Part shown: positions 7,960-46,752 of the stretch, piece by piece | Numbering within the stretch: position 1 is the first letter of the stretch | Layout: each line of letters begins with the position of its first letter | NCBI GenBank assembly: GCA_030658975.1 | Contig: JAUSBL010000105.1 | Location: 10,971 to 74,970, forward strand | Length of the DNA stretch: 64,000 nucleotides | Source: Candidatus Latescibacterota bacterium | GTDB taxonomy: Bacteria; Krumholzibacteriota; Krumholzibacteriia; LZORAL124-64-63 | Direction: 5' to 3' | Notes under the pieces: model-generated | What the model saw: the letters and a program-made list of their open reading frames with translations, nothing else | What the model was told of the DNA's origin: nothing | Databases searched by the model: none | Translations under genes and position numbers: made by a program

Positions 7960-8117
7960 GGTGGTCCACCTGTCGATACGGGGGCGGGCATGTCAGCCGG
8001 ATCCGGAACCACACCATTATAGACCATGCCGGAGTAGGGCGCGGCGCCAGCGCCCGGCACAAATGAGACTTATCCTATGGGGATCCGTCCCTTGAGGCCA
8101 TCCGCCGAGGAGCCCCC

Positions 8118-17108: not shown

Positions 17109-17269
17109 GGAAGAATATCCTCGTCGTTGGTGGGGATGGAGGCGGAGGTCGTTCTGGCAGGATAGGCAGGGCCGGTCCGGCCGGCCACCGCCCGGGACGT
17201 CCTTGCCGAGGTGGCTCCCCGCCGCGCCATGCGATATGATCGACGATGCACCTCCTCAAGGAGCTGATC

Positions 17270-21186: not shown

Positions 21187-22701
21187 TCATTTCAGCATGA
21201 CGATCCGCTGCGTCTGACTTGCGCCCGCGGTCTCCAGCCGGACGAAATAGACGCCGCTGGCCGCCGTCGCGCCGTCGTCGCTGCTCCCGTCCCAGACCGC
21301 CAGGTGTTCGCCCGCCGCCAGGTCGTCGCGGCGCAGCGTGGCCACGCGCCGGCCGGCCAGGTCGTGGATGCTCAGGTCGATCGGGCCGCCGTCGCCCAGC
21401 GTGAAGCGGATGCTGGTCGCGGGGTTGAACGGGTTCGGTTCGGCCGGATGCAGGCGGGTGGTTCCCGCCATCGAGGGCGCGGCCGTCACGGTCCCCACGC
21501 TGAAGAGGTGCTCGACCGTCTGGCCCTGGAACGTGACGCGGAACTTCCAGACACCGTCGTCGCCGAAGGGCAGGTACCAGCCCCAGTACCACCACGACGC
21601 AACGTAGTGGGGGACGTTCAGCCATGCGGTCCATTCCTGCCAGACCGCGCCGTCCGGCTTCAGGATCTGATAGGTGCTGATCTGGTTCTGCAGTTGGTCG
21701 CGGTAGTAGGTGGCGAAGTAGACCGGATCGCCGGCCTGGAATTGGGTCTGCTCGTTGGTGATTTCGGTATTCGGGCAGCTCGGCCAAACGGGCGGCGCGG
21801 AGTGCGTGCGCAGGGCGTTGATCGCCGGGTCGTAGTAGGGGCGCTGGTCGGCCCACCAGCCGTCTTCGTTCAGCGAGTTGCAGGGGCCGCTCCAGGGATC
21901 GACCAGCTGGCCGAGGTTGTCGTGCAGCTCGAAGTGCAGGTGAGGGCCGGTGCTGTTGCCGCTGCTGCCCACGACGCCCAGGTACTCGCCCGCGGCCACC
22001 GCGTCGCCGACGATCTTGGCGGTGGTCGACCCGCTCTTCATGTGTCCGTACCAGGCGGTCGATCCGTCGTCGTGCTGCACGTAGACGGCGTTCCACTGGC
22101 CGCTGCCGAAACCGCAGTTGTGGTCGAAATGGCCGTCGTACTTGCCGACGATCACGCCGGAGGCCGCAGCGACGACCTCGACATCATCGTTGTCCATCTT
22201 CAGCCAGGAGAAGGGCCAGGTGAAGATATCGGTCCCCGAGTGGTTGTAGCCGCCGGACAGGTCGTAGGTGCGCGTGCCGCAGTTGTAGTCCAGCAGGTGG
22301 TTCGGGTAGGTCGCGTCCTGGTCCACGTAGTTCGAGATGCCGTGGTAGCCCGGATCGTCGAGGTGGGCGGCGGCCCGCAGCGGCCACTGCAGGAGCACGC
22401 CGGCGGCCTTGTCGACCGAGTCGGGCAGAAGCCCCTGCGCGCGCAGGGCCGCGATGTTCGCGGCCAGGTAGGATTCGATCTCGGCGCGCTGTTCGGGCGT
22501 GACGCAGGGCACGTCGCGGTCGCTCTCCCAGTAGCCGTGCGCCGCAGCGACCGGCGGGTCGGCGGGCGGTTGCCCCAGACCGGCGGCGTGATCCCGCGAC
22601 ACCTCGACGATGCGCGCCAGGGACGCCGGCGCCCAGCAGAGGGAGAGCAGGGCCAGCGCCAGCGGCAGCAAGCGCGGCGTGCGGTCGAAGCGGTGGGTCA
22701 T
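21187..22701 (-). CDS. M23 family metallopeptidase with a T9SS CTD
   Basis: Signal peptide. M23 HxxxD and HxH motifs (YNHSGTDI, GSSGNSTGPHLHFELHD). C-terminal AEPNPFNPATSIRFTL...GVYFVRLETAGASQTQRIVMLK. Confidence 0.85.
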   Translation of the reverse strand: MTHRFDRTPRLLPLALALLSLCWAPASLARIVEVSRDHAAGLGQPPADPPVAAAHGYWESDRDVPCVTPEQRAEIESYLAANIAALRAQGLLPDSVDKAAGVLLQWPLRAAAHLDDPGYHGISNYVDQDATYPNHLLDYNCGTRTYDLSGGYNHSGTDIFTWPFSWLKMDNDDVEVVAAASGVIVGKYDGHFDHNCGFGSGQWNAVYVQHDDGSTAWYGHMKSGSTTAKIVGDAVAAGEYLGVVGSSGNSTGPHLHFELHDNLGQLVDPWSGPCNSLNEDGWWADQRPYYDPAINALRTHSAPPVWPSCPNTEITNEQTQFQAGDPVYFATYYRDQLQNQISTYQILKPDGAVWQEWTAWLNVPHYVASWWYWGWYLPFGDDGVWKFRVTFQGQTVEHLFSVGTVTAAPSMAGTTRLHPAEPNPFNPATSIRFTLGDGGPIDLSIHDLAGRRVATLRRDDLAAGEHLAVWDGSSDDGATAASGVYFVRLETAGASQTQRIVMLK

Positions 22702-22933
22702 GGCGAGATCCCTTCGTGACGGCTTGCGAGTCCGAGACTGCCGCAAATGAAGTCCAATCATGTCCTATTTATCGCGGATTGACAAGAGGCAGCCCCCGCT
22801 GCGGGCCAGAGTGCCCGGATCGATGGTCGGCTGATATGCTATATTCAAAACCCACTGCGGCCGACGATCGGGGGTCATCGGCCGGAGTCTCGTCGCGATG
22901 CACGCTCACCAGCCGCCAACCAAGGAGCCGACC

Positions 22934-25206: not shown

Positions 25207-25959
25207 ATGAGGACACTCATGGTCATGTGGTTGCTGATGCTCCTCAGCCCGGAGCCCGCCGTGCCCGAGCCGCACCGCCCCGCGCCCGATTCCCGCGCCG
25301 CCGACCGTCGCGCCATGGTCGAGGAAGTCGCCCGCTACGACCGCCTCGCTTCCGCCGAGATGGGCCGCCCCGCGCTGTCCCCCGCGGTGCTCGCGGCCCT
25401 GGGCCGCGCGCCCCGCCACCTTTTCGTGCCCGCCGATCTGCAGTCCGTCGCCTACGCCAACAACCCCCTGCCCATCGGGCACGACCAGACCATCAGCCAG
25501 CCCTACATCGTGGCCCTGATGACCGAACTGCTGGAGACTTCGCCCGGCGACACGGTGCTGGAGGTGGGTACGGGCTCGGGCTACCAGGCCGCCGTGCTGG
25601 CGGAGATGGGCGTGGTCGTGCACAGCATCGAGATCGTCCCGGCCCTGGCCCGGCGCGCCCGCCGGGACCTGGCCGCCGCCGGCTACGCCGGCAGTGTCAT
25701 CGTCTACGAGGGCGACGGCTACGCCGGTCTGCCCGACCTGGCGCCCTTCGACGGCGTGATCGTCACCGCGGCGCCCGACCACGTGCCCGAACCCCTGCTC
25801 GAACAGCTCGCGTCCGGCGGCCGCCTGGTGATCCCGGTGGGAACGGCGGGCGGCCATCAGGAGCTGCTGGCGCTGACCAAGAGCGCGGACGGAGCGGTGC
25901 ACCGCGAGCGGGTGACCGCTGTGCGGTTCGTGCCGCTGACGCGGGAGGAAGATCGATGA
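25207..25959 (+). CDS. pcm: Protein-L-isoaspartate O-methyltransferase with an N-terminal signal-peptide-like extension
   Basis: Canonical Pcm core (QTISQPYIVALMTELLE, LEVGTGSGYQAAVLA, GGRLVIPVG). The start is either 25207 (hydrophobic MRTLMVMWLLMLL extension) or 25315 (MVEEV); neither has a strong RBS. Confidence 0.8.
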   Translation: MRTLMVMWLLMLLSPEPAVPEPHRPAPDSRAADRRAMVEEVARYDRLASAEMGRPALSPAVLAALGRAPRHLFVPADLQSVAYANNPLPIGHDQTISQPYIVALMTELLETSPGDTVLEVGTGSGYQAAVLAEMGVVVHSIEIVPALARRARRDLAAAGYAGSVIVYEGDGYAGLPDLAPFDGVIVTAAPDHVPEPLLEQLASGGRLVIPVGTAGGHQELLALTKSADGAVHRERVTAVRFVPLTREEDR

Positions 25960-25993
25960 TCGCTATTCCGATACCCTTGTAGGAGGTCTCACC

Positions 25994-27061
25994 ATGAATC
26001 GACGGTCGTATCTCGGTGGCGCTGCGTGCGTGCTCGCTGTTTTCGTGCTCCTGACCTGTTGCGGTCCGGTCCGGGCCGAACTCATCGTCGACGGCGGGTT
26101 CGAAGCGGGAACGCCGGAATTGAGCCTGCCCGACGTGTTCTTGATCTGGGCGGGGGATCGCACCGCCACAGTCCCGGCGATGAGCGGGATCACGCCCGCC
26201 GAGGGCGTCCGGATGCTGCAGTTCATCAACACGAGCTGGACCCAGCAGGGCGCGAGCGGCGCCACGAGCAGCGACCTGTGGCAACTGGTCGACGCCGCGC
26301 CGTTGCGCGGGCAGAACCTGTTGCTGAGCGCCCGCTTCAACCGGGTGCAGGTCGACGCCCAGACGGACACGCGTTTCGCGCTGAACATCTACGCCTTTAC
26401 GGGCGCTCCAGCGAGTTTCGACAATAACGATCCGAACCTGCCGGCGAGCATCGGTCACGAGAACGCCCAACTCCTGAGCGACGCAGACCCGGCGACCTGG
26501 GAAACGGTCGCCATCGATTTCGCGGTGCCGGCGAACGCCGACTACCTCGGCGTCTCGGTGTCGGCCGCCGAGAACATCCACAACGACTCCTCGGGCACCG
26601 AACTGGACGGGCATTTCGCCGACGCGGTCGAGCTCGGCGTCGACTGCAACGGCAACGGGGTCTTCGACGCCGTGGAGATCGCCGGCCACCCCAGCCTGGA
26701 CTGGAACGGCGATGGCGTCATCGACAACTGCCAGCAGGGGATGGGTGTCGTCGGCGCGCCGTCCGCAAACTCCGGCCGCGACCGCGTCACACTGTGCGGC
26801 GCCAGCCCGAATCCCTTCAACCCGGTCACGACCTTGGCCTTCGACCTGCCTCGCCCGATGGTCGTGTCGCTGCGCGTGTACGACGTGTCGGGCCGATTGG
26901 TGGCCGGCCTGCTGGACGGCGAAACCGCGCGGCAGGGCCGCAACGAGGTCGCGTGGCGGGGGCGGGACGCGGCGGGCCGGGCGGTGCCGTCGGGGGTCTA
27001 CTTCTATCGTCTCGAGGCGGAAGGGAACGCCGCGGTCGGGCGCATGACCCTCTTGGAGTAG
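25994..27061 (+). CDS. Secreted hypothetical protein with a T9SS CTD
   Basis: GGAGGT RBS and signal peptide. Dockerin/EF-hand-like segment CNGNGVFDAVEIAGHPSLDWNGDGVIDNC. C-terminal ASPNPFNPVTTLAFDL...GVYFYRLEAEG...RMTLLE. Confidence 0.75.
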   Translation: MNRRSYLGGAACVLAVFVLLTCCGPVRAELIVDGGFEAGTPELSLPDVFLIWAGDRTATVPAMSGITPAEGVRMLQFINTSWTQQGASGATSSDLWQLVDAAPLRGQNLLLSARFNRVQVDAQTDTRFALNIYAFTGAPASFDNNDPNLPASIGHENAQLLSDADPATWETVAIDFAVPANADYLGVSVSAAENIHNDSSGTELDGHFADAVELGVDCNGNGVFDAVEIAGHPSLDWNGDGVIDNCQQGMGVVGAPSANSGRDRVTLCGASPNPFNPVTTLAFDLPRPMVVSLRVYDVSGRLVAGLLDGETARQGRNEVAWRGRDAAGRAVPSGVYFYRLEAEGNAAVGRMTLLE

Positions 27062-27166
27062 ACCTGCCGCCGGAGGGCGATGAATCCCGTTGAGCATTCA
27101 TGACTTCAGTGATATGAAGATGCGTGTTCATCATATCGATGGTCCATCGTGGAAGGAGCTGCGGTC

Positions 27167-28105
27167 ATGAACCCTCGCGCTCTCGTGCTCGTCATCGCCG
27201 TTCTCGCGGCCTTAGCCGGCGGCGCCTCCGCCGCGGAACTGTCCAACCGCGGACCCTACGGCGAGTTCTTCTTCGACCCGGCCACGGGACTCACCTGGTG
27301 CGACCCCGACGTGCTGACGGGCACGGACCGCGCCGCGCTCGACGTCTTCGTCACCCGCAACTCGACCGGCTGGGCCTGGGCCACGAGCGCGCAGATCGAC
27401 GCGTTGCTGGGCAGCACGGCGCCGGCCGGGTCCGATCTCGTGGACGTCATGGGCGCTCCCCAGTTCATCGTGGGCGCCGGCGGGCCCCGCTGGATCGGCT
27501 ACTATGCGGGCACCTTACCCGATGGCTGGCTGATCCAGTCGGACACCGAGCCGTACGATGTCCTGTCCCAGTCCGGCGGCCAGGGCGGCGTCGAGGCCTG
27601 GGGCCCCGGCGGCTGGCTCGTCAACGCCGCCGACCCGACCACGCTGCCCCGCCTCGCGGATCAGGGCGCTCACCGGCAGCTCTTCCACGACGAGAGCTCG
27701 GGCCTGTACTGGTGCGACCCGTCCCTGTTCGTCGGGTTCACCCGCGACCAGGTGACGGACTGGCTGGCCGCCAATCCCGGCTGGCGCTGGGCCGCCGCCG
27801 CCGAGGTCGCGGCGCTGGTCGGCCAGCTGTCCGTGGGTGATGTCTCCCTGGTCGAAGTCATGGGCGCGCCGCAGTTCTGGGCGGGCGTCGGTGAGCCGCG
27901 CTGGATCGGCTACTACGAGCAGGCCGCCCAGCCCGACGGGCTGCTGCTGGAGGCCAACATCGAACCCTACTTCCACATCGTGACGAACTACGGCACCCAG
28001 TCGTCCGCGGCGGGCTGGAACCCCGGCGCCTGGGTCGTGACCGCGGGCGCGCCGACGGCTGCGGCGGAAGCGTCGTGGGGAGAGGTAAAGAGTATCTATA
28101 GGTGA
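27167..28105 (+). CDS. Secreted hypothetical protein built from two tandem approximately 150-aa repeats, ending in the ANEAAxWGxVKxxYR-type motif
   Basis: GGAAGGAG RBS and signal peptide. The two halves align (LTWCDPDVL...VMGAPQFIVGAGGPRWIGYY... and LYWCDPSLF...VMGAPQFWAGVGEPRWIGYY...). C-terminus AAAEASWGEVKSIYR. Confidence 0.7.
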   Translation: MNPRALVLVIAVLAALAGGASAAELSNRGPYGEFFFDPATGLTWCDPDVLTGTDRAALDVFVTRNSTGWAWATSAQIDALLGSTAPAGSDLVDVMGAPQFIVGAGGPRWIGYYAGTLPDGWLIQSDTEPYDVLSQSGGQGGVEAWGPGGWLVNAADPTTLPRLADQGAHRQLFHDESSGLYWCDPSLFVGFTRDQVTDWLAANPGWRWAAAAEVAALVGQLSVGDVSLVEVMGAPQFWAGVGEPRWIGYYEQAAQPDGLLLEANIEPYFHIVTNYGTQSSAAGWNPGAWVVTAGAPTAAAEASWGEVKSIYR

Positions 28106-30980: not shown

Positions 30981-33581
30981 CTATCCATCCCGGACCGAAG
31001 CTAGCTCCGCCCGGATCGTGGCCAGCTCGTCGCCGTCGCCCGCGCCCTGATCGGCGATCCGCAACGCCCGCTCGTAGTGCGCGCGCGCTTCCTCCCGCCT
31101 TCCCTGCATCGCGCTGATCCTGCCCAGTTCGATCACCACTTCCAGGACCTGCGGGCTGTCGTCGCCGAAGGCCTGCGTGCGCACGGACAGCGCCGCATCG
31201 AGCAGCGTCCTGGAGTGGGCGGGCTCGCCGGCGTCGCGGTACATGTTGGCCAGGTAGACCTGGGTGTAGGTCGGAGACGGGTGGTCCGCGGGCAGCGCCC
31301 GGGTCAGGATCTCCAGGGCGCGCTGCGCGATGGCGATCGCCTCGGGCAGGCGGCCCAGGTCGGCGAGGTCGCGGGCGTAGTTGCTCAGGGCCATGCCGTA
31401 GTTGGGGTGCTCGGCGCCGACGGCCTTCTCCCAGATCGCCGTCTCGCGTCCGTGGTGGTCGAGCGCCCGTGCGTGATCGCCCTCCGCGCGGCAGAGGTTG
31501 CCCAGCATGTCGAGCGTCTCGGCCACGTCGGTGTGCTCGGGACCGAGCGCGCGTTCCTGCACCGCGAGGGCCTCCTCGCCGAGCTCGCGGGCCCGGACGT
31601 TCTGCTCGCTGTTGGCGTAGAGGGTGCCGAGCGTGGACAGGCTCCAGGCGAGGTCGAGGTCGTCGGGGGCGAGGGCGCGCCGCTGGATCGCGACGACGCG
31701 CTCGAACATCGCGAGCGCCGAGTCGGCTTCCCCCAGACGCCACTGGGCGAGGGCCAGGCCCGAGAGGTGCGACGCATACCGCGGGGAATCGGCGCCGGCG
31801 CTCCCGGCGGTGATGGCGAGGGCGCGCCGGTACAGCTCGCTGGCTTCGGCGAAGCGGCTCTCGTCCACCTCGAGGTTCGCCAGGCCGGTCAGGCTGACGG
31901 CGAGGTCGTCGGGATCGTGGCCCCGCTCGCGGATCGCGAGCGCCGAGCGGTAGTGCTCGCGCGCGGGGCCGAGCTCCCGCAGCCGGCGCAGCAGGCCGGC
32001 CAGGACGTAGTGGCTGCGCGCGACGCGCGGGTGGTCCGGGCCGAGCGTCGCGCGCTCGAGCGTCAGGGCCTGCTCCAGGAGCGGGCGTGATTCGCGGTAC
32101 AGTCCGAGCTGCCGGTAGGCGTTGCCCATCGAGGCCAGCAGCCGCCCGCGCACCTGCGGCTGGTCCGCCAGCTGGGAGTCGATGTCGGCCACCGCGCGGT
32201 CGAGCAGCTCGCGAGCGGTCACGGCCTCGCCGCGGGATTCGCTCGGATCGGCGACGCGGAACACGGATTCCAGGAAGCTCGCCGTCCTCTCGGCGGCGGC
32301 CTCGGCGCGCTTGGCGCGCAGCATGCCGGTGGTGGTCCCGCCGACCGCGGCGACCAGGGCCGCCAGCAGCGTGCCCGCGAACACGATCACCAGACGGTGG
32401 CGGACGACGATCTTGCGCAGCTGGTACGCCGTGCTCGGGGGGCGGCCGAAGATGGGCAGGTTGTCGCGGTGGCGGCGGATGTCCTCGGCGAAGGCCGCGA
32501 CGCTCTGGTAGCGCAGGGCGGGGTCCTTGGCGAGCGCCTTCAGGACGATGGTCTCCAGGTCGCCGCGCAGCAGCCGGCAGAACGCGGAGGGTCGCGCCGG
32601 TTCGTGCTCGCGGATCAGGAGCACCGCCTCGGGCAGCGCGGCGCCGCTCACCTCCACCGGCAGGCGGCCCGTGAGCATCTCGTAGAACAGGACGCCGAGC
32701 GAGTAGATGTCGCTGCGCACGTCGAGGTCGCGCACGTCGCCGCCGGCCTGCTCGGGGCTCATGTAGGCCAGGGTGCCGGCGAAGGAGCGGCCGCCGTGGC
32801 CGAGGGTCGTTTGCCCCGTGTCGCCGCCGGTGATGCGGGCGATGCCGAAATCGAGCACCTTCACCGCGGGCGCCGACGCGTCGCCGGCCGACGGCAATAC
32901 CATGATGTTCGACGGCTTGAGGTCCAGGTGCACGACGCCGCGCTGGTGGGCGTGCGAGATCGCGTCGCAGACCGCGAGGCACAACGCGGTGCGTGTCGCG
33001 AGTTCCGCGCGCGTGTCCGGCGCCGACCTCCCGCGCAGCCAGGCGTCGAGGGACTCGCCGTGCACGCGTTCCATGGCGAACCAGTGCAGGCCGTCGTCGG
33101 TGCGTCCGGCGTCGTGGATGGCGGCGATCCCGGGGTGGTTCAGCCGGCCGAGGCTCTCCGCCTCGCGCCGGAACATGCGCAGCTGCTGGGTGCCCGCGAA
33201 CACGCCGGCGCGCAGCACCTTCAGGGCCACGGTGCGCGGCGGGTGGGACTGGCGCGCCTCGAAGACGACGCCCATGCCTCCCTCGCCGAGCCGCCCGAGG
33301 ATCCGGAAGGGTCCCACCTCCCGGCCGGCGAGATCGCGGTCCGCGCCGTCGGCCGTCGCGCCGGTGGCCAGCAGATCGCCGAAGTGGTCGGGTACGGGAT
33401 GGTCGAGCAGGCCGTCGTCGGTCTCGTCGCAGAGCAGCAGGCTCTCGACCTCTTCGCGCAGCGCGCGATCGTCCCCGGCGAGTTCGGCGAGGCGACCGGC
33501 CCGCTCCTGGGGCGCCAGCGCCAGCAGTTCGTCCAGGATGGCGTCGAGCCGCCGCCAGCGCGCGGCTTCGCCGGGGTTCAC
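30981..33581 (-). CDS. Ser/Thr protein kinase, membrane-anchored, with a C-terminal (periplasmic) TPR array
   Basis: Hanks kinase motifs (GEGGMGVVFEA, ALKVL, HRDLKPSNIMV, DFGIAR, SPEQ). One TM segment (LVIVFAGTLLAALVAAVGG) followed by more than 8 TPR repeats. Its start overlaps the upstream sigma factor stop (ATGA). Confidence 0.88.
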   Translation of the reverse strand: MNPGEAARWRRLDAILDELLALAPQERAGRLAELAGDDRALREEVESLLLCDETDDGLLDHPVPDHFGDLLATGATADGADRDLAGREVGPFRILGRLGEGGMGVVFEARQSHPPRTVALKVLRAGVFAGTQQLRMFRREAESLGRLNHPGIAAIHDAGRTDDGLHWFAMERVHGESLDAWLRGRSAPDTRAELATRTALCLAVCDAISHAHQRGVVHLDLKPSNIMVLPSAGDASAPAVKVLDFGIARITGGDTGQTTLGHGGRSFAGTLAYMSPEQAGGDVRDLDVRSDIYSLGVLFYEMLTGRLPVEVSGAALPEAVLLIREHEPARPSAFCRLLRGDLETIVLKALAKDPALRYQSVAAFAEDIRRHRDNLPIFGRPPSTAYQLRKIVVRHRLVIVFAGTLLAALVAAVGGTTTGMLRAKRAEAAAERTASFLESVFRVADPSESRGEAVTARELLDRAVADIDSQLADQPQVRGRLLASMGNAYRQLGLYRESRPLLEQALTLERATLGPDHPRVARSHYVLAGLLRRLRELGPAREHYRSALAIRERGHDPDDLAVSLTGLANLEVDESRFAEASELYRRALAITAGSAGADSPRYASHLSGLALAQWRLGEADSALAMFERVVAIQRRALAPDDLDLAWSLSTLGTLYANSEQNVRARELGEEALAVQERALGPEHTDVAETLDMLGNLCRAEGDHARALDHHGRETAIWEKAVGAEHPNYGMALSNYARDLADLGRLPEAIAIAQRALEILTRALPADHPSPTYTQVYLANMYRDAGEPAHSRTLLDAALSVRTQAFGDDSPQVLEVVIELGRISAMQGRREEARAHYERALRIADQGAGDGDELATIRAELASVRDG

Positions 33582-34189
33582 GGCTCACCCGGCGCGGACG
33601 ATCCCGCCAGCTCGCGGTGGAGGAAAGCGCGCGCCCGTCGCCAGGCCCGCTTGACGGTGGCGTCGCTCACACCGATCGCCTGCGCCGTCTCCTCGATCGT
33701 CAGGCCGCCGAAATAGCGCAGCTCGACGATGCGCGCCAGCTGGGCGTCCAGACCGGCGAGCCGCGACAGCGCGGCGTCGAGGGCGATGATGTCGCGGGTC
33801 TGGGCTTCGACCGCCGCGTCGGACTCGGTCAGCGGCACGTGTCCGGCGCCGGCGCCGCGCTTGAGGCTCAGCCGCCGGCGCGCGTGGTCCAGCAGGACCT
33901 GGCGCATGGCGGAGGAGGCGACCGCAAAGAAGTGCTGCCGGTCCTCCCAGGCCATCTCGCCGTGGCGCGCTAGCTTCAGGTACGCCTCGTGGACGACCGC
34001 CGAGGTGTCGAGCGTCGGGCTGCGGCGTCCCCGGGCGACCCGCCGGTGGGCGATCTCGCTCACGTCCGCGTAGACCAGTTGAAACGCCTCGTTCAGGGCC
34101 GCGGGGTCCCCGCCGCGGGCGGCGTGCAGCGCCAGCGTGACGTGGTGGGTCCGCGCGGCGTCGTCCTGGAGTGCCCGATCTTCAACCAT
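33578..34189 (-). CDS. ECF-type sigma-70 family factor of the Ser/Thr-kinase-associated class (TIGR02999-like)
   Basis: Region 2 (VVHEAYLKL) and region 4 HTH (LTIEETAQAIGVSDATVKRAWRRARAFL). Translationally coupled to the downstream kinase gene. Confidence 0.8.
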   Translation of the reverse strand: MVEDRALQDDAARTHHVTLALHAARGGDPAALNEAFQLVYADVSEIAHRRVARGRRSPTLDTSAVVHEAYLKLARHGEMAWEDRQHFFAVASSAMRQVLLDHARRRLSLKRGAGAGHVPLTESDAAVEAQTRDIIALDAALSRLAGLDAQLARIVELRYFGGLTIEETAQAIGVSDATVKRAWRRARAFLHRELAGSSAPGEP

Positions 34190-34358
34190 GACAACATGGT
34201 ATCAATCGAATCCTGATTGGCTACAAATTTAGTCCGAAATTCTCACTCCGCGGTGACCCACCGGACTGGATTCCTCCGTTATCCCTCGTGAACAGGGCTG
34301 CCCCGGCGCACCGCCGCGGGTGGCAGGAATCGCAGTTCCGTCCGGCAGGAGGTCCGCC
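34190..34358. promoter_or_regulatory. Divergent promoter region between the ECF sigma operon and the secreted-protein/giant-protease operon
   Basis: Locally AT-rich. Palindrome CAATCgaatcctGATTG at about 34212-34228. TGAAC-type ECF -35-like element at about 34294 on the plus strand. Confidence 0.35.
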
Positions 34359-34820
34359 ATGTCCAGATACCAACAGTGGGTTACGAGCGCGGTCGTGCTC
34401 GTGGCCATCTCGTTCAGCGTCCCCGCCGCTGCCCAGACCGGGAAGGCGCCGGCCGACACGGGGGGCGTCCTGATCGTACCGGATGCGGCCGCCCTGGATG
34501 CCCCGGCGCCTGCGCCGTCCACGCCCCTGGAGCGGGAGGTCGCGGCGATCCGCGCCACCTACCGGACCCGGCTCGCCGAACTCGTCGCGGTCTACGCCGC
34601 CGCCCCGGACGCCGCCGCCGCGTCGGCGGCGCAGCGCGAGATCTCGGCCCACAAGCAGAAGCTCGAGCTGGACCTGCTGGGCCTCCAGCTGCGGTTGGCG
34701 CGCGAGCGCAACGCCACCGACGCGATCGTGGAGCTCGAACAATCCCTGACGGCCGCCCGCGCGCGGCTGGTCGCCGACACCGGTCTCGACGTCCCGGCGG
34801 TCCCCGCCGCCACCCGCTAG
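34359..34820 (+). CDS. Secreted Ala-rich coiled-coil hypothetical protein
   Basis: AGGAGG RBS and signal peptide (MSRYQQWVTSAVVLVAISFSVPAAAQ). Ala/Leu/Glu/Arg-rich helical C-terminal half. Lies 14 bp upstream of the giant HExxH gene. Confidence 0.6.
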   Translation: MSRYQQWVTSAVVLVAISFSVPAAAQTGKAPADTGGVLIVPDAAALDAPAPAPSTPLEREVAAIRATYRTRLAELVAVYAAAPDAAAASAAQREISAHKQKLELDLLGLQLRLARERNATDAIVELEQSLTAARARLVADTGLDVPAVPAATR

Positions 34821-34834
34821 CAGGAGGACCCGTC

Positions 34835-37800
34835 ATGAGGATCATCACACGGGGGCGACGCAGCCCCGCGACCATCCTGCTGCTGCTGGCGTTCGCCGCG
34901 CCGGCCCTCGCCGACATGGGGCCGGAAGTGAAGATGAGACTTCACGCGCCGGACGGCGCCTACCCGGTGGCCGGCCAGACGTTCAGCTTCGATTTCGAGA
35001 TCACGAGCGCGACTTCCTCCACCGTGACGGCGCCCGTCGTGCGCTCCGGCCGCACGCCGGCGGGCGAGTCCGCCTGGGAGGTGGTCAGCTTCCCGCTGCC
35101 GGCCGGCACCCGGCTGGTCGCGATGCAGCCGACGACGATCCCGGTGCAGCTGCAGTGCAACGACCCGGCGCAGCCGATCGAGATCTCCCTGGAGGTCGAA
35201 AACCGCACCGCGATGCAGCGCTTCTACCTGCTGCCGCAGAACCTGAACGCGGCCATGGGCGGCTCCGAGACGATCATGGCCTTCGACAGCGACCAGGGCC
35301 CGGCCTGGACGACGGACGACGAGTTCGCGCGCCCGGATCCCGCGCCCGTCACGCGCAAGAACGTGCGGGACCAGCGCAAGGACATGCCGGCGAACCCCAC
35401 CACCGGCCGCAACATCCGCGTCCGCGGGCGTTTCGTCTACTACCGCAACTCGTACAACGAGGATGGGGACTACCGGGGCGACGGCCTCACCATGGGCGCC
35501 GACGGCGTCACGGTGAACGTCTACGACTCCGACTGGGAGTGGGACGACCTGCTGGCCCAGACTTCCCTGGGACCCGACGGCAATTATGACATCACGTTCT
35601 GGTACGACGACGCCGAGGCCCCGGACATCTACGTGGAGTTCCTGGCCGCCAACAGCAAGGTCGATCTGGTGCACCCGAGCATCTGGAACATCTCCTACTC
35701 GTGGAGCACGCCGACCAAGGAGGACTACAACGGGTCCCACATCAACTGGGGGCTGCGGCACCCGGCGTCCGAGTCGCACTACGCCGGTCTGAACCTGCTG
35801 GCTTCAGCCACGCGCACCTGGCGCTGGCTGAACGCGAACGGTTACGGCGGCATCGACGATCTGCTCATCTCCTGGCCAGACTCCGACTGGCCCCACTACT
35901 CGTCGGACTGGGAGACAATCTACATGCCCGAAGACAAGGAGTGGTACGAGAGCACCGTCTGCCACGAGTATGGCCACCACTGGCAGCAGGAATACACCGA
36001 GGTCGACGGCACCGACTACTGCAACGCCGGCGGTCGCTGCGACGACCCCAACTCGGACTGCCGCCACTGCTTCTGGTGCGAGGAGACCGCGGGCGACGCG
36101 CTGCGGGAGGGTTTCCCCGACTGGATCTCCAACGCGGTGACCGCGTCCTGGCCGTCGTCCTACGGCTTCTCCGCGATCTTCGAGTACGACTGGGAGTCCG
36201 TGAACGTGTGCGGCTGGGACGACCTCGACGAATTCGACGATCCCTGGAAGACCGAAGGCAACATCGCCGCCTTCCTGCAGGACCTGGTCGACGACAACAA
36301 TGAGGTGGACCCGAACGCCCTGTTCGGCGGCGCCGACGTCGCGAACTGGTCGGCGCAACGGATCCTGTCGACCCAGGGCACCTACGACCCCACCACCCCG
36401 GCGGGGCTCATCTCCCGCCTGCGGACGCGCTACCCCGAATCCCGGGACGTCATCTGGATGGCGGCCGCGAACGCGCGTTTCAACGGGCTCGACACGCAGG
36501 CGCCCTCGGCCCTGTCCGGGCTCGCCTCGCTCAGCCACGCCACCTCCGGCGATTCGCCCGACGGCACGGTCGAGCTGGTCTGGAACGCCGCCAGCGACGG
36601 GGATTCCGGCGTCAACGGCTACAGCGTGCGCGTCGGCACCGCCGCCGGCCTGGTCCCGGACGTGACCGTCGAGACGACGGCGACCGCGTGGACCTCGGAC
36701 GACCTCAATCCCGGGACCTACTGGTTCACCGTCCGCGCCGTCGACCGCGCCGGCAACGCGGGCACGCACGCCTCGTTCGGGCCGGTGACCATCCGCAACT
36801 GGACCGCGGCCAACCTCGAGGCCATCGACGGCGGCTACTGGCCCTACCCGGTCGTGCCGCGCATCACCGGCAACTCGACCTACACGAGCGCGCCGCTGCC
36901 GGCGGTGCTGGTCGGCAACGACGACAACACCTACATGAACGTGCGCGTCGGGAATTCCGGCGAGCTCACGAGCAGCCCCATCGTGCGCCTGAACCTCCTG
37001 GTGGACGGCGCGCTGTGGTGGTACTCGAGCATCTACCCGCTGGAAGGCTACCACGACCTCCCCTACATGAACATCGGCCCCTCGGTGGTCAAGGGCGGCC
37101 GCCACGCGGTCATGATGTGGGCGGACGCCCACGAGCAGATGGCCGAAATCGACGAGGCCGACAACATCTTCGTGCGCCAGTTCATCTGGTACCCGCTGTC
37201 CCTCTACACGAACGGCACCTGGGTCGTGCGGCAGCGCCCGCCCGACGCCTGGGGCGGCTTCAACCCGGGCCTGTTCTCCGCCCCGAACTGCGACGGATTC
37301 GCCTTCGCCCTGAACTCCGACCCGTTCGTCGGCGCGGTCATGGTCACCGACGACGACACCTCGGACTTCGATCTGCGGCTGCACGGGCACACGACCGGGC
37401 CGACTTCCGGCTTCGGCTACTTCGACCTCGATGCGTTCAGCGCCCGGCCGGCCGGCTGCATCGAGGGGGTCTTCGTCAACAACAGCCAGACGACGGAGAC
37501 CGTCTTCGACGTCGGGGTCGTCAACCACGACTTCGACGGCTACGGCTTCAAGATCCGCCGGATGTTCAGCACCCTGATGGCGACCGGCAGCGACGTGCGG
37601 TTCCCGCTGAGCCCGATCGAGCCGCTGGCGCTGCGCCACTTCACGATGTCGGGCGGCTCGGGCACCAACTACGGCACGGTCACCCTGCAGGTGGATCCGG
37701 CGGTCGGACCGGTGCGCATGAAGGTCATGCACTCCGGGCTCGCCGACGGGGGCCTCGGCGACATCTGGGACCAGGCCGTCACCGATGCCGACGGGTTCGC

Positions 37801-39361
37801 GAAGGTCAACTTCACCTACGGCGGCACGACGCAGGGCCTGGCCGTCTGGCAGGATCCGCGGGACATCCCCGAGGGCGGCAACGGCCACTTCCAGGTGACG
37901 GTCCGCGCGTACGTCCGGCGTCCCGACTTCGTCCCGCTGACCACGGCCGGCTGGCACGCGCCCCTGGTGCCGACCTACCCGATGCCGGGCACGCCGGCCT
38001 CGACCCCGCTGCCCGGGACGCTGGTGGGCAACGCGACCGTGACCTACATCAACGCCCAGTTCCGCAACCAGGAGGCGGGCACGGCTGGGCTGTTCGACAG
38101 CATGATCTACCTGGACGGGGTGTCCCTGCTGGGCGAACAGATCTCCATGATGGCCGGCTTCTCCGACCGCATCCGCAACTTCCCGACCGCCCAGAACATC
38201 CGCGGCGGCCGGCACACCCTGTCGATGTTCCCCGATGCGGGGCACGACGTGACCGAGGGCGACGAGACCAACAACGCGATGGGCGTACAGTACGCCTGGT
38301 CGCCGATGAACCTGACGGCCGGGTCGGTCATCAACAGGACGGCGCCGCCGGACCCCACGGGCGGCTTCGCCGACGTGATGGCCTGGAGTTCGGATCCGAC
38401 GTGGTACAACTGCGACGGCCTGCGCTCTCCCGTGCCGGCGCCCTCGGGAGACAACGGGTGGTGGGTGGCGGTCGCGGCGCTCCCGGGCGCGGCCAGCGAT
38501 GTCGACCTGCGCCTGCACGAGAAGATCGACTCGCCGCTGCATGGTTTCCGCATGGCCCATGCCGTGTCGGTCTGGGGTCCGGCCGAGTCCGAGTACGTGC
38601 TCGTGAACTGCCGGGCCACGACGCCGCGGCAGTTCGACGTCGGGGCGATCGGCTTCGACGGCGTCGAGAGCTACCGGGTGCACGCGGCGGTGTCGTCGTT
38701 GCTGGACATCGATCCGCAGGGCGACTACGGCCCCTTCAACTTCGGCGCCACGAACCTGATCAAGCTGTACGATGTGTGGCTGCCGGCCGGCCCGCTGCTG
38801 ATCGAGCTGCGCGATACCGGCGGCGACGGCATCGACTGGGGCCTGACCCTGCACCGCGGCCAGCTGCCTTACCACGCCAAGTCGGCCTCGGCCGGCATCG
38901 TCGCCCAGAGCTGGATCGCCGGCGCGGGCCAGGACGAGAGCCTGCCCGCGGTCGTGCCGCAGGACGGGTACTACTGCCTCGCGATCTGGAAGGCCGGCGC
39001 CGCCGACGCCGCCAAAGCGGGGCAGTACGAACTGACGTTCAACCCGGGCACCACGCCGGTGCCGGGCGACAACGGCCCCCCCGTCGTCACTGCGGTGCGG
39101 GAGATCACGCCCAACCCGTTCAACCCCAGCACGCGCATCGCCTTCGACCTCGCGCGCGACGGGCGCGTCGCGCTCGAGGTGTTCGACGTGCGCGGCCGGC
39201 CGGTCCGCCGGCTGCTGGCGGCCGATCTGGCGGCCGGCCGGCACGAGGCGATCTGGGACGGCCGCGACGACGACGGCAACGGCGTGGCGAGCGGCACCTA
39301 CTTCGCACGGCTGACCGGTGCGGGCGAAGTGTCCACGCGCAAGATGCTCCTGTTGAAATGA
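34835..39361 (+). CDS. Giant (1508 aa) secreted putative zinc metalloprotease (HExxH) with an FN3-like domain and a T9SS CTD
   Basis: AGGAGGA RBS and signal peptide. HEYGHHWQQE (HExxH followed by a downstream E) plus a Cys-rich segment (CNAGGRCDDPNSDCRHCFWCEE). FN3-like domain (VELVWNAASDGDSGVNGYSVRVG...TYWFTVRAVDRAGN). C-terminal ITPNPFNPSTRIAFDL...GTYFARLTGAGEVSTRKMLLLK. Confidence 0.75.
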   Translation: MRIITRGRRSPATILLLLAFAAPALADMGPEVKMRLHAPDGAYPVAGQTFSFDFEITSATSSTVTAPVVRSGRTPAGESAWEVVSFPLPAGTRLVAMQPTTIPVQLQCNDPAQPIEISLEVENRTAMQRFYLLPQNLNAAMGGSETIMAFDSDQGPAWTTDDEFARPDPAPVTRKNVRDQRKDMPANPTTGRNIRVRGRFVYYRNSYNEDGDYRGDGLTMGADGVTVNVYDSDWEWDDLLAQTSLGPDGNYDITFWYDDAEAPDIYVEFLAANSKVDLVHPSIWNISYSWSTPTKEDYNGSHINWGLRHPASESHYAGLNLLASATRTWRWLNANGYGGIDDLLISWPDSDWPHYSSDWETIYMPEDKEWYESTVCHEYGHHWQQEYTEVDGTDYCNAGGRCDDPNSDCRHCFWCEETAGDALREGFPDWISNAVTASWPSSYGFSAIFEYDWESVNVCGWDDLDEFDDPWKTEGNIAAFLQDLVDDNNEVDPNALFGGADVANWSAQRILSTQGTYDPTTPAGLISRLRTRYPESRDVIWMAAANARFNGLDTQAPSALSGLASLSHATSGDSPDGTVELVWNAASDGDSGVNGYSVRVGTAAGLVPDVTVETTATAWTSDDLNPGTYWFTVRAVDRAGNAGTHASFGPVTIRNWTAANLEAIDGGYWPYPVVPRITGNSTYTSAPLPAVLVGNDDNTYMNVRVGNSGELTSSPIVRLNLLVDGALWWYSSIYPLEGYHDLPYMNIGPSVVKGGRHAVMMWADAHEQMAEIDEADNIFVRQFIWYPLSLYTNGTWVVRQRPPDAWGGFNPGLFSAPNCDGFAFALNSDPFVGAVMVTDDDTSDFDLRLHGHTTGPTSGFGYFDLDAFSARPAGCIEGVFVNNSQTTETVFDVGVVNHDFDGYGFKIRRMFSTLMATGSDVRFPLSPIEPLALRHFTMSGGSGTNYGTVTLQVDPAVGPVRMKVMHSGLADGGLGDIWDQAVTDADGFAKVNFTYGGTTQGLAVWQDPRDIPEGGNGHFQVTVRAYVRRPDFVPLTTAGWHAPLVPTYPMPGTPASTPLPGTLVGNATVTYINAQFRNQEAGTAGLFDSMIYLDGVSLLGEQISMMAGFSDRIRNFPTAQNIRGGRHTLSMFPDAGHDVTEGDETNNAMGVQYAWSPMNLTAGSVINRTAPPDPTGGFADVMAWSSDPTWYNCDGLRSPVPAPSGDNGWWVAVAALPGAASDVDLRLHEKIDSPLHGFRMAHAVSVWGPAESEYVLVNCRATTPRQFDVGAIGFDGVESYRVHAAVSSLLDIDPQGDYGPFNFGATNLIKLYDVWLPAGPLLIELRDTGGDGIDWGLTLHRGQLPYHAKSASAGIVAQSWIAGAGQDESLPAVVPQDGYYCLAIWKAGAADAAKAGQYELTFNPGTTPVPGDNGPPVVTAVREITPNPFNPSTRIAFDLARDGRVALEVFDVRGRPVRRLLAADLAAGRHEAIWDGRDDDGNGVASGTYFARLTGAGEVSTRKMLLLK

Positions 39362-43541: not shown

Positions 43542-43803
43542 TGATTTGCTGATTTATTTACCATTGGTTAATTGACGGGCAAACGATATTGATCACAGCA
43601 ATCAACATGTTATGGTCTCCGACAGGATACCCCACGCCGCCGCCGCAAAATCCGCGGCCTTCCCTTGCGGTCGCGTCTTCACGCTGACCACTCGAGCTAC
43701 GCCGCGGGTCGCGGCGGCGGCACCACTTTATCGATCGCCACGACGATCTTCGGGCTCGGCGGGGCGCTGCCCAACGGCGCGGCCGAGCGCGAGAGGTGCC
43801 CGC

Positions 43804-46752
43804 ATGAGCGACGACGATCGGACCCAGCCTTTCGATCCCGAAGCCACGGCCCACACCGGCCCACCGGTGTCCCCGAACGGACCCGTCCTGCCCGCCCGCG
43901 TCGGCCGCTACCGCCCCCTGCGGATCCTCGGTCAGGGCGGCATGGGCGTGGTCTACGAGGCCGAACAGGACGAGCCGCGCCGTCGGGTAGCGCTCAAGGT
44001 GATCCGTCCCGAACTGGCCACCGCGGAGATGCGCCGGCGCTTCAGCCACGAGTCGCTGTTCCTGGGACGGCTCCAGCATCCCGGCATCGCCCAGGTCTAC
44101 GAGGCCGGCACCGCCGACACCGACTCCGGGCCGGTGCCCTTCATCGCCATGGAACTGGTGGACGGCGTCCGGCTCGGCGTATGGGACCGGGAGCAGGCCC
44201 CGGATCTGCGCGCCCGCATCGAACTGATGATCCGCTTGTGCGACGCCGTGCACCACGCCCATCAGCGCGGTCTCATCCACCGCGACCTGAAGCCGGGCAA
44301 CGTGCTGGTGGACGCCGCCGGCCACCCCCGCGTCCTGGACTTCGGCGTGGCCCGGACCGCCGACGCCGACTTCGAGACCTCGCTCGTGACGACCCACGGC
44401 GAGCTGGTGGGGACGTTGGCCTACATGAGCCCCGAACAGCTGGCCGGCGATCCGGGCGATCTCGACACCCGCAGCGACGTGTACGCCCTCGGCGTGATGC
44501 TCTACGAACTGCTCGCCGGCCGGCCGCCGCTCGCCCTGGTCAACCGCCCGCTCGAGGAAGCGTTGCGGGCCATCCGCGAGCAGGAGCCGCCGCCGCTGTC
44601 GAGCCACGATCCGCATCTGGCCGGCGACCTCACCGTCATCGCCGCCACCGCCATGGCCAAGGATCGCGAGCAGCGCTACGCCTCGGCCAACGGCCTGGGC
44701 CTGGACCTGCAAAGGTACCTCGACGACCAGCCCATCGCGGCGCGCACCCCGGGCACGGTCTACCTGCTGCGCAAGTTCGCGCGGCGGCACCGGCCGCTGG
44801 TGATCGGCGCGGTCGGGGTGGCCCTGACCCTGATCCTGGGCGTGGTCGCGAGCACGCTGCAGGCCGTGCGCGCCACCCGCGCCGAGCGGTTGGCCGAAGC
44901 GCGTCTGGACCAGGCCGAGACCGTCACCGGTTTCCTGCAGGACATGCTGGCGGCGGTCCGGCCCGAGGAGGCGCGCGGGCGCGAAGTCACCGTGCACGAG
45001 ATGCTGGATCGCGCGGCGGCGGACCTCGGCGGCGGCGCGCTGGCGGGCCGGCCGCTGGTGGAGATGGCGCTGCGCACCACCCTGGGCGGCACATACCGGA
45101 GCCTGGGCCGGTACGAAGAGTCCGACCTCCACCTGCGCCGCGCCCTGAGCCTGGCCGATTCGCTGCTGGAACCAGCAGATCCGGAGAGGCTGGAGCTGAT
45201 GCTCGATCTGGCGCGCACGGTGAAGATGCGCGGCGCCGGCGACGAGGCCGAACACCTGGTGTCGGGCGTGAGGGAGCGGACGTCTGCGCGCAGCCGCCTT
45301 TCCGCCGATGCCCTCGGCATCCTGGCCGACCTGCGCTACGAGCAGGGCCACTGGCTCCTCGCCGACAGCCTGAAGCATCAGATGCAGGACATCGTCGCCC
45401 GCAACGCGGGACCGGACTCGCTCGCCCTGGCCGACGTGCTGCAGAGCCGGGCCTTCCTCGCGGAGCAGCGCGGGGATCTGGACCGCGCCGGCGCCCACAT
45501 CCTGCGGGCGTCCGCGATCTACAGCGCCGCCTACGGCGCCGACGATCCGCGGATGATCGGGATGTTCAACAAGCGCGGGGATCTCGCCCACAGCCTGGGG
45601 CGCTTCCAGGATGCGGATTCGATCTACCGGGAAGGCCTGGCCATCGTCGAGGCGAACTACCCCGAGGACCACACGCTGCGCGGCGACGTGCTGTGGCGGC
45701 TCGGTGTCTGCCGGCTCGCCGCCGGCGATCCGGAAGCCGCCGAGCAGGCCCTCGTCGCCGCGCTGGACATCCGACGCCGGGCGCTCGGTCCCGTGCATCG
45801 CGACATCGCGCTGACCCTGCAGTCCCTGGCCGATGTCCGGAAGTCCCAGGGACGCCTCGACGAAGCCGAGACCGACCTGACCGAGTGCCGGATCATGCGC
45901 GAGCAGATCTTCGGCCGCGTCCACCCTTCGGTCGCCGCGGCGATGAACGACCTGGGCCTGCTCGCCCGCACGCGCGGACAACCGACGCGCGCCGAGAGCC
46001 TGCTGGTGCAGGCGCAGCGCATCATCGAGCAGCTTCCCGAGTCTACGGGCACCCTGGCCAGTCTCAACGCCTTCTATCTGGCCATGTCGTTGCAGGACCA
46101 GGGCCGCCACCAGGACGCCGAGGTGCATTTCAGGCGTTCTCTGGAACTCAACGCCGCGCAGTATCCCGGGCCGCACCCCGTGGTTGCCAGGGCGCAGACC
46201 AACCTCGCCACGTGTCTGTTCCGGCAGGGGCGCAAGCAGGAGGCGGCCGATCTGCAGGGCGAATCGTTGGCCATGCTGCGCACGCTCGGCGTCCGGGGCT
46301 CGGCCCTGCTGCTGGCGATCGGGAACACCGCCTTCATGCTGGACGACGCGGACCGCCTGGACGAAGCCGCGCCCCTGCACCGCGAATACATCGAGATCGC
46401 GGGCGAGGTGTACGCCGAACAGGAGCCCGGCCGCACCGACGCCCGATTGCGTTACTTCGACAACCTGGCCCGCCGGCAGCGGTGGGCCGAGGCCGAGGAA
46501 GAGGCGCGGGCGATCATCGGCTGGCGGGAGCGCTTCCTCCCCGACAGTGATTTCAGGTCCCGCAGCGGCGGCGTGTTCCTGGCCGAGGCCCTGCTGGGGC
46601 AGGGCCGCAGCGCGGCGGCGGACAGCGTGCTGGTCGTCGCCGAGGTCGCGCTGCAGAGGTACGCCGACGTGCCGGAGAAGGCCCGGCAGCGCTTCCAGCG
46701 GGTCCGCGCCGAGGTGGACGCCGCCCACGGCCGGGTCAGCGCGAGCCGATGA
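43804..46752 (+). CDS. Ser/Thr protein kinase, membrane-anchored, with a long C-terminal TPR array (paralog of 30981..33581)
   Basis: GQGGMGVVYEAEQ, ALKVI, HRDLKPGNVLV, DFGVAR, SPEQ. TM helix (LVIGAVGVALTLILGVVASTL). More than 10 TPR repeats. Confidence 0.88.
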   Translation: MSDDDRTQPFDPEATAHTGPPVSPNGPVLPARVGRYRPLRILGQGGMGVVYEAEQDEPRRRVALKVIRPELATAEMRRRFSHESLFLGRLQHPGIAQVYEAGTADTDSGPVPFIAMELVDGVRLGVWDREQAPDLRARIELMIRLCDAVHHAHQRGLIHRDLKPGNVLVDAAGHPRVLDFGVARTADADFETSLVTTHGELVGTLAYMSPEQLAGDPGDLDTRSDVYALGVMLYELLAGRPPLALVNRPLEEALRAIREQEPPPLSSHDPHLAGDLTVIAATAMAKDREQRYASANGLGLDLQRYLDDQPIAARTPGTVYLLRKFARRHRPLVIGAVGVALTLILGVVASTLQAVRATRAERLAEARLDQAETVTGFLQDMLAAVRPEEARGREVTVHEMLDRAAADLGGGALAGRPLVEMALRTTLGGTYRSLGRYEESDLHLRRALSLADSLLEPADPERLELMLDLARTVKMRGAGDEAEHLVSGVRERTSARSRLSADALGILADLRYEQGHWLLADSLKHQMQDIVARNAGPDSLALADVLQSRAFLAEQRGDLDRAGAHILRASAIYSAAYGADDPRMIGMFNKRGDLAHSLGRFQDADSIYREGLAIVEANYPEDHTLRGDVLWRLGVCRLAAGDPEAAEQALVAALDIRRRALGPVHRDIALTLQSLADVRKSQGRLDEAETDLTECRIMREQIFGRVHPSVAAAMNDLGLLARTRGQPTRAESLLVQAQRIIEQLPESTGTLASLNAFYLAMSLQDQGRHQDAEVHFRRSLELNAAQYPGPHPVVARAQTNLATCLFRQGRKQEAADLQGESLAMLRTLGVRGSALLLAIGNTAFMLDDADRLDEAAPLHREYIEIAGEVYAEQEPGRTDARLRYFDNLARRQRWAEAEEEARAIIGWRERFLPDSDFRSRSGGVFLAEALLGQGRSAAADSVLVVAEVALQRYADVPEKARQRFQRVRAEVDAAHGRVSASR

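Follow-up and report, generated by a model that had tools for sequence, protein, structure and literature searches.

Among sigma factors of the extracytoplasmic function (ECF) kind, the hallmark of the ECF43 group is an adjacent gene for a Hanks-type kinase (PMC13147305; PMC7826278). In EcfK/PknS of Xanthomonas citri and EcfP/PknT of Vibrio parahaemolyticus, a sigma factor of the TIGR02999/PF07638 kind stands beside a Ser/Thr kinase with no anti-sigma gene, and STTA or QTTA replaces the acidic DAED motif of region 2.2 (PMC8999054; PMC13147305). When the second Thr is phosphorylated, the motif regains the charge that it needs for binding to the beta' subunit of RNA polymerase (PMC8999054). Here we describe a locus with such a pair in 64,000 nucleotides of contig JAUSBL010000105.1 (the window, meaning the whole stretch analysed), which comes from a Krumholzibacteriota-like host, whereas the hosts of EcfK and EcfP are Proteobacteria. 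The pair diverges from the genes of a small and a giant secreted protein, and on balance we lean slightly towards reading the locus as an ECF43-type phospho-switch beside its probable target operon, which would encode a secreted metalloprotease and a cognate partner. The layout is as follows:

30981..33581, minus strand: receptor Ser/Thr kinase, 866 aa
33578..34189, minus strand: ECF sigma factor, 203 aa, TIGR02999/PF07638, ECF43-type
34190..34358: divergent spacer, 169 bp
34359..34820, plus strand: small secreted protein, 153 aa
34835..39361, plus strand: giant secreted protein, 1508 aa

The four genes were confirmed at these coordinates by open reading frame (ORF) listing and codon-position GC content. 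The TGA stop of the sigma gene and the GTG start of the kinase gene share four nucleotides (GTGA), and this overlap, together with the domain matches given below, bears out the first-pass annotation of this DNA, which had read the sigma factor as translationally coupled to a kinase with a transmembrane (TM) helix and tetratricopeptide repeats (TPR). Its divergent arrangement across 169 bp, with a two-gene unit of an Ala-rich small secreted protein and the giant, was confirmed as well. The giant gene begins 14 nt past the stop of the small gene and its start is preceded by AGGAGG; in the mechanical list the same frame appears as a 1661-aa ORF, which is merely extended upstream. With one genome per species, 159 relatives of the giant were found, and 77 loci were retained, from metagenome-assembled genomes (MAGs) labelled Krumholzibacteriota/-ia, Eisenbacteria or 'bacterium', some of them 'uncultured Fibrobacteraceae'. 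The closest relative, 91% identical, comes from the Danish wastewater MAG JADJIV01.

The sigma factor and the kinase carry these features:

33998..34009, minus strand: sigma region 2.2 motif D61-T62-S63-A64, at the canonical DAED position
33324..33581, minus strand: kinase N-terminal extension, aa 1-86
32463..33308, minus strand: Hanks kinase domain, aa 92-373, Pkinase 131.6 bits
32928..32951, minus strand: kinase catalytic loop HLDLKPSN, aa 218-225, instead of HRDLKPxN
32325..32393, minus strand: kinase TM helix, aa 397-419, a single hydrophobic stretch
31002..32243, minus strand: periplasmic TPR array of the kinase, aa 447-860, TPR_12 (210 bits) and TPR_10

The sigma factor scores 191.4 bits against TIGR02999 (cut-off 126.15) and 154.9 bits against PF07638 (cut-off 21.1), in agreement with its earlier assignment to the TIGR02999-type class that occurs beside Ser/Thr kinases. 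As in the two proteobacterial systems, no anti-sigma domain lies in the genes neighbouring it (Pfam scans). In region 2.2, a Thr/Ser-containing motif stands at the place of the acidic one. All orthologous sigma factors share TLDT(T/S)AVVHEAYL in the alignment, with DTSA in the window and DTTA in the orthologues. The Thr/Ser and the terminal Ala fit the ECF43 pattern; a phosphorylatable residue is therefore in place, even though the first Asp (D61) is retained, which sets the motif apart from STTA/QTTA, and S63/T62 is a candidate phospho-acceptor as judged from the alignment.

The kinase has the architecture of X. citri PknS, in which an N-terminal extension of ~85 aa is followed by the kinase domain, a TM helix and periplasmic TPRs (PMC13147305). 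Its motifs VALK (K121), HLDLKPSN, DFG and SPE are present. The catalytic Asp is kept, but because Leu replaces the Arg of HRD the sigma-coupled kinase is of the non-RD type (HLD), a further difference from the described pairs. Activation-loop phosphorylation is often not what regulates non-RD kinases. The orthologous kinases have in common the pattern W-x2-L-D-x-IL-D-E-L-L in the N-terminal extension. The sigma/kinase half of the locus represents a known kind of system in ordinary form. The window holds a second TM/TPR Ser/Thr kinase (43576..46752, plus strand, coding probably from ~43804, ~980 aa), which has no adjacent sigma gene and lacks the ~86-aa N-terminal extension of the sigma-coupled one.

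The presumed target differs from those of EcfK and EcfP, which are type VI secretion system (T6SS) or polymyxin-resistance genes; here it is a secreted protease operon. The spacer contains:

34254..34281, plus strand: candidate ECF-type promoter TGACCC-N17-CGTTA, directed towards the small+giant operon
34196..34239, minus strand: two conserved blocks upstream of the sigma ATG, TGATAnnAT and GGACTAAATTTGTAGC
34203..34219: palindrome CAATC-N7-GATTG, between the minus-strand block and the ECF-type motif, judged to have arisen by chance

When the spacers of nine loci were aligned, the DNA was mostly unalignable and two blocks were conserved. A -35 of TGnnCC, a 17-nt spacer and a -10 of CGT make up the shape of ECF promoters, for example the sigma-W, sigma-X and sigma-M sites of Bacillus subtilis. 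TGACCC-N17-CGTTA occurs as an exact match only once in the 64-kb window (0.06 expected), its CGTTA ending 77 nt before the ATG of the small gene. Exact copies are found in L002/L014, L008, L009, L010 and L015, and copies with one or two mismatches in L001, L013 and L017, plus L003 and L012, two loci with no adjacent sigma gene; in all orthologue loci the copy is found 77-109 nt ahead of the small gene ATG, and no copy of TGACCC-N17-CGTTA faces the sigma gene. In the equivalent 700 nt, a relaxed pattern that takes in all of these variants matched 11 of 11 evaluable orthologue loci and three of 65 paralogue loci, a count that is partly circular because the pattern was derived from the loci counted, and in which the orthologue loci are related by descent. 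A further caution is that the reviews give no promoter consensus for ECF43, and no outside evidence ties the motif to this group.

Of the two minus-strand blocks, TGATAnnAT stops 6 nt short of the sigma ATG and GGACTAAATTTGTAGC lies further upstream (nine loci, right-aligned); no Shine-Dalgarno sequence precedes the ATG. These blocks may act as a promoter of housekeeping type, from which the sigma mRNA would be leaderless or nearly so; a scan for sigma-70 promoters and terminators gave nothing useful around the operons. The search upstream of 34359 for an ECF promoter, proposed in the first-pass annotation, thus yielded a conserved ECF-like motif, and the two elements that the annotation itself had singled out were rejected. 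The palindrome that it had taken for a regulatory element exists but is lost in L008 and L015, where the giant is ~90% identical, and shuffled spacers contain on average 1.4 inverted repeats of 5 bp with 3-10 nt loops (at least one in 69% of the shuffles). The -35-like TGAAC at 34289 follows closely downstream of the -10-like CGTTA; no relatives other than the three closest ones have it, and it lacks a correctly spaced CGT-type -10.

Matches of the TGTCCG type were also seen upstream of the small genes in L044 and L062. In L035 (4737..7285), TGATCC-N17-CGTTA lies ~50 nt upstream of a gene for an 822-aa protein with a beta-lactamase-like domain and a FlgD_ig tag; since this tagged gene is itself followed directly by a paralogous small+giant pair, a related sigma factor may have it as another target.

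A divergent sigma+kinase pair is found in the window, L001, L002 (=L014), L008, L009, L010, L013, L015 and L017, and the pair occurs only beside orthologues in which the giant is at least 53% identical. The window is flanked by genes for RecQ, DUF1801, an outer-membrane beta-barrel protein, DUF3788 and an aminotransferase, which are shared only with relatives at ~90% identity. The four-gene block is nevertheless kept in L001, L002, L010, L013 and L017, with none of the window flanking genes shared, so the linkage that was to be checked across related genomes proved to be conserved in relatives with rearranged flanks. One paralogue locus has a comparable set: in the Krumholzibacteriia MAG BB18 (L046, 3052..11401; giant 32% identical), a TIGR02999-like sigma factor, a TPR kinase with an N-terminal extension, the small protein and the giant are encoded co-directionally, with TGTCCG-N17-CGTAT in the spacer between the kinase and small genes (one of the three paralogue matches above). 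The N-extension pattern of the orthologue kinases is seen there by eye and is all that the window and L046 extensions have in common, BLAST being not significant. L046 is the only locus of ~65 paralogue loci examined with an adjacent TIGR02999-like sigma factor and TPR kinase, and this single case is suggestive, not significant.

It could be argued that the genes have stayed together by descent only, the sigma-kinase pair regulating genes elsewhere or itself while another sigma factor or regulator reads the spacer motif. This would fit the restriction of the linkage to the orthologue lineage: the sigma+kinase pair is absent beside the giant in L003 (53% identity), L012 (66%) and ~65 paralogue loci, that is, ~65 paralogous small+giant pairs do without an adjacent sigma gene. 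The latter speaks against our reading too. Across the family the module is not 'self-contained', the term first used for it, and two of the orthologue loci (L003 and L012) would have their sigma gene elsewhere. It would also fit the richness of these genomes in Ser/Thr kinases, which occur at a density of roughly one per 90 kb across the loci examined. We regard this explanation as unlikely, since the block outlives the complete turnover of both flanks, in an otherwise unalignable spacer an ECF-shaped -35/-10 pair has held its spacing and its distance, the sigma association is recreated in L046 in a different gene order, and none of the motif copies points towards the sigma gene. A regulatory link from the sigma factor to the small+giant operon is plausible, in one lineage only. 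A general enrichment of Ser/Thr kinases beside paralogous pairs was considered and rejected: the genomes being kinase-rich, kinase-only neighbours of paralogues are at background level (~13 non-cognate kinase matches in ~1.2 Mb).

In two of the orthologue loci, the gene directly downstream of the kinase gene codes for a FlgD_ig-tagged S8 peptidase (L001, 1871..3979; L002, 1910..4030). In L007 (4876..7410), a tagged M6 peptidase is encoded beside a small+giant pair.

The giant protein is the probable output of the switch, and it is built as follows:

34835..34912, plus strand: signal peptide, MRIITRGRRSPATILLLLAFAAPALA
34913..35401, plus strand: N-terminal region, no family
35402..35746, plus strand: transthyretin-like sandwich
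35747..36502, plus strand: catalytic core, aa 305-556
35963..35980, plus strand: HEYGHH motif, aa 377-382
36020..36079, plus strand: Cys-rich insert C396/C402/C409/H411/C412/C415 of the core, aa 396-415
36107..36112, plus strand: E425-G426 in 'EGFPDW', invariant, on the next predicted helix
36563..36760, plus strand: fn3 (PF00041), aa 577-642
36812..39106, plus strand: tandem duplication of a CARDB-like domain and a ~250-aa module (x2)
36920..37171, plus strand: CARDB-like 1, weak (17.4 bits)
37199..37954, plus strand: module X1, no family
38042..38281, plus strand: CARDB 2, aa 1070-1149, 32.9 bits (cut-off 22.7)
38303..39103, plus strand: module X2, no family
39104..39349, plus strand: C-terminal domain (CTD), of the FlgD_ig/type IX secretion system (T9SS) type A kind, aa 1424-1505

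In the full-length protein, Pfam and NCBIfam see only the CARDB domain at aa 1070-1149 and the C-terminal domain; scans of sub-regions add fn3, a weak TTR-52 match and the weak first CARDB. The halves of the duplication are 32% identical over 254 aa (BLASTP, E 3e-24). A database search gave ~48 full-length relatives of 1,377-1,557 aa, mostly 1,450-1,520 aa, with 33-87% identity, all of them without a name or labelled just by the CTD or CARDB domain.

The HEYGHH...E motif and the Cys-rich cluster noticed at first were both located in the core. H377, E378, G380 and H381 are invariant in 38 homologues of 32-87% identity, as are Y395-C396-N397, D403, C409, H411, W414-C415, E417 and E425-G426, and the family motif can be written HEYGHH-x13-DYCN-x-G-x-CD-x-C-x-HC-x-WC-x-E-x7-EGF. 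The predicted catalytic residues H377, E378, H381 and E425 are also invariant across 21 catalytic cores. E425, in the EGF sequence, is a candidate for the third zinc ligand and is predicted to lie in the helix after the HExxH helix; E417 is likewise invariant. The context of 'EGF' is similar to that of the zinc-ligand motif of M1 peptidases, 'NEGFA'. The claim that the HExxH domain resembles no named peptidase family also stood up: the 21 cores hit no Pfam peptidase family at E<=10, giving scattered unrelated weak matches (best E 0.053), NCBIfam had no match on the giant outside the CTD, and a profile search of the PDB with the core gave no sequence match.

The domain was also compared through its fold, with AlphaFold2 models of aa 185-560 and of the core alone (aa 305-556) run with Foldseek against the PDB. 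In the longer model (predicted local distance difference test score, pLDDT, 84; predicted template modelling score, pTM, 0.86) a transthyretin-like beta-sandwich is followed by an alpha/beta core, and the sandwich matched transthyretin/HIUase, the model as a whole M1 aminopeptidases. As transthyretin-like matches dominated this run, the core was re-modelled alone (pLDDT 79, pTM 0.83), and then only zinc metallopeptidases of gluzincin type were matched. The top match was thermolysin (5fxn, probability 0.99, query TM-score 0.52), a modest likeness (TM 0.52, 11% identity, E 0.015), and other leading matches were fungalysin (M36), selecase/abylysin/jannalysin, protealysin, and LTA4H and a cold aminopeptidase of M1. 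The models, in other words, favour a thermolysin-like gluzincin rather than the non-catalytic fold that had been left open. With a gluzincin-like model and no sequence match in Pfam or the PDB, the HExxH domain most likely belongs to a new gluzincin family, of which it would be a catalytically competent member.

Gluzincins (clan MA(E): M4 thermolysin/protealysin, M36, M1/LTA4H and the minigluzincins) have an HExxH helix and then a helix with an invariant Glu, an order that is also predicted for the giant. The giant differs from them in having no sequence match to Pfam, NCBIfam or the PDB even at E=10, in the ~40-residue Cys/His insert and the preceding transthyretin-like sandwich, and in its length of 1508 aa and its duplicated C-terminal modules; no GxMEN motif was seen when the sequence was read by eye. 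Apart from the five conserved Cys and one His of the insert, C459 is conserved too, and these residues might provide disulfides or a second metal site. Among 1.84 billion cluster representatives (clusters at 50% identity), the core profile matched 273 at E<=1e-30, which is a lower bound for family size, and 1161 at E<=1e-3. Most of these proteins have ~1,450-1,530 aa and a few have other architectures. In one of 1040 aa (P0050) the same core (E 1e-64) is combined with RCC1 and Ig domains in place of the CARDB modules; the transthyretin-like domain and the core therefore behave as a mobile module.

The C-terminal end suggests how the giant could leave the cell. Its CTD scores 39 bits with PF13860 (cut-off 27) and a marginal 23.1 bits with TIGR04183 (cut-off 23), and fn3, when its sub-region was scanned alone, reached 27.6 bits (cut-off 25), so that the FN3-like domain and T9SS CTD of the first-pass annotation were both recovered. 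Like T9SS type A cargo of the Bacteroidota, which combines an N-terminal Sec signal, a C-terminal beta-sandwich of ~80 aa (TIGR04183/PF13860) and Ig-like spacers, the giant has an N-terminal signal peptide, Ig-like spacer domains and a C-terminal sorting domain. It differs in a TIGR04183 score just at the cut-off and in a host outside the Bacteroidota.

Directly upstream of the giant gene, every annotated locus has a gene of 142-201 aa without a Pfam match, often overlapping the giant gene by 4 nt, which makes small+giant the deeply conserved unit. The window small protein matches the ORF immediately upstream of the giant in 45 ORFs (84 loci and the window). It is 25% Ala and starts with a signal peptide, which is followed by a variable Pro/Ala linker, ~85 conserved residues and a Pro-rich tail. 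The conserved part reads …LAEL…A(P/T)D…A.aiQ.EI..lK...ElD.L.iQ.R.AR..G…lE and, in the alignment, contains three helix-like segments and an A(P/T)D turn. Searches of Pfam at E<=10 (18 members) and of the PDB with a profile returned coiled-coil noise only. Kinship with Spy/CpxP (LTXXQ) or Skp/OmpH was considered and found no support.

A parallel for the pair is found in Tannerella forsythia, where potempins are encoded upstream of, and co-transcribed with, the KLIKK peptidases that carry a T9SS CTD (PMC9890683). There, as here, the gene of a small secreted protein lies immediately upstream of that of a T9SS-CTD peptidase, with several pairs per genome. Potempins are outer-membrane lipoproteins of 98-132 residues, whereas the partner here has 142-201 aa, three helix-like segments and no relatives detected. 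We take the likeness as functional analogy only, not membership, and by this analogy the small protein is most plausibly an inhibitor or holdase. As for the protease half of the locus, on the models above its clan is known, while the family is new and so is the obligatory partner.

In the mechanism that we propose, the sigma-kinase mRNA would be made constitutively from its own housekeeping-type promoter, and the sigma factor would remain inactive until the kinase phosphorylates S63/T62. The periplasmic TPR domain would detect an extracytoplasmic cue and cause the kinase to act on the sigma factor, which in its phosphorylated form would bring RNA polymerase to TGACCC-N17-CGTTA and have the small and giant genes transcribed. 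Both proteins would cross the inner membrane by Sec, and the giant would then be exported or attached to the surface via a CTD-dependent route. Outside, it would act as a multi-module zinc endopeptidase degrading extracellular protein, with the CARDB, fn3 and duplicated C-terminal modules serving in binding. The small protein would be its cognate periplasmic partner, most likely serving as an inhibitor or holdase so that the protease does no harm until it is exported.

Several observations weigh against this proposal, besides the modest likeness to thermolysin. With the acidic D61 kept, the unphosphorylated sigma factor may not be fully inactive. The ~40-residue Cys/His-rich insert between the two helices has low pLDDT in the models. 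The small protein shows no similarity to inhibitor or chaperone families, and its signal peptide in the window has no lipobox Cys, so that it is not a lipoprotein, unlike the potempins; a few homologues have a possible lipobox and an ordinary signal peptide is usual. No T9SS component was found among the scanned part of the window ORFs, a scan that included no search aimed at the T9SS machinery.

The pairing itself may also be read in another way, with the giant as an antibacterial or cell-wall/glycan-directed weapon instead of a nutritional protease, the small protein as its immunity protein and the many paralogous pairs per genome as a diversified effector-immunity arsenal. Genomes do carry several paralogous loci (at least six in CAIWHK01, at least six in CAIOLW01 and four in JAJDAC01), each pair has its own diverged small partner, and one pair (L005, 13120..20401) lies beside a T6SS cluster. 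The fold matches nevertheless consist entirely of peptidases, with no hydrolase of peptidoglycan or glycans among them. Immunity genes usually come after the effector gene, not before it, which is the reverse of the small-giant order, and CARDB, fn3 and the CTD are modules typical of degradative enzymes that are secreted. We find the weapon interpretation improbable. That the giant serves without catalysis as a surface adhesin or structural protein, on a retained zincin-like scaffold, seems to us very improbable: ~930 of its 1508 residues match no family, Ig-like modules and a CTD fit surface display, and inactive T9SS zincins do exist, as seen from the NCBIfam model 'T9SS-dependent M6-like inactivated metalloprotease' (whose match here covers the CTD only), but the invariance of H377, E378, H381 and E425 in the 38 homologues, down to 32% identity, and the 21 cores is expected of an active site and not of a relic.

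Returning to the phospho-switch with its protease operon, a wider version is conceivable: the small+giant pairs would form a previously unrecognised, phylum-wide system of the Krumholzibacteriota/Eisenbacteria with a dedicated helical periplasmic inhibitor/holdase for each gluzincin of the new family, and in one lineage the periplasmic TPR kinase would sense substrate, products or cargo state and signal through ECF43 to TGACCC-N17-CGTTA. We hold this version only tentatively and doubt that it is right in full. Experiments on ECF43 sigma/kinase switches come from a few Proteobacteria only, and the locus offers, around a compact 169-bp spacer, a putative sigma-promoter-target triplet open to direct testing in a candidate phylum; if true, it would be the first defined target promoter and physiological output of an ECF43 system outside the Proteobacteria. 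Neither the catalytic core nor the small partner has a Pfam model, and describing both would improve the annotation of Krumholzibacteriota/Eisenbacteria from wastewater and sediments. In addition, the small+giant pair may reveal a new protease-partner principle, of inhibitor or chaperone, for CTD-dependent secretion.

The same FlgD_ig-type CTD ends at least six further window proteins besides the giant (at least seven in all), and it looks like the organism's general export signal. The tagged proteins are two LVIVD beta-propellers, a GH53 galactanase, a GSDH-like dehydrogenase, an M23 peptidase and one without other domain, at:

3774..6173, plus strand: FlgD_ig-tagged protein
6238..7992, minus strand: FlgD_ig-tagged protein
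15636..17255, minus strand: FlgD_ig-tagged protein
21187..22764, minus strand: FlgD_ig-tagged protein
22835..25150, plus strand: FlgD_ig-tagged protein
25940..27061, plus strand: FlgD_ig-tagged protein

Elsewhere in the window, at 27149..28105 on the plus strand, a secreted protein of 318 aa without a Pfam match consists, when read by eye, of two similar halves with the repeated motifs …W(C)DP… and VMGAPQF…PRWIGYY.

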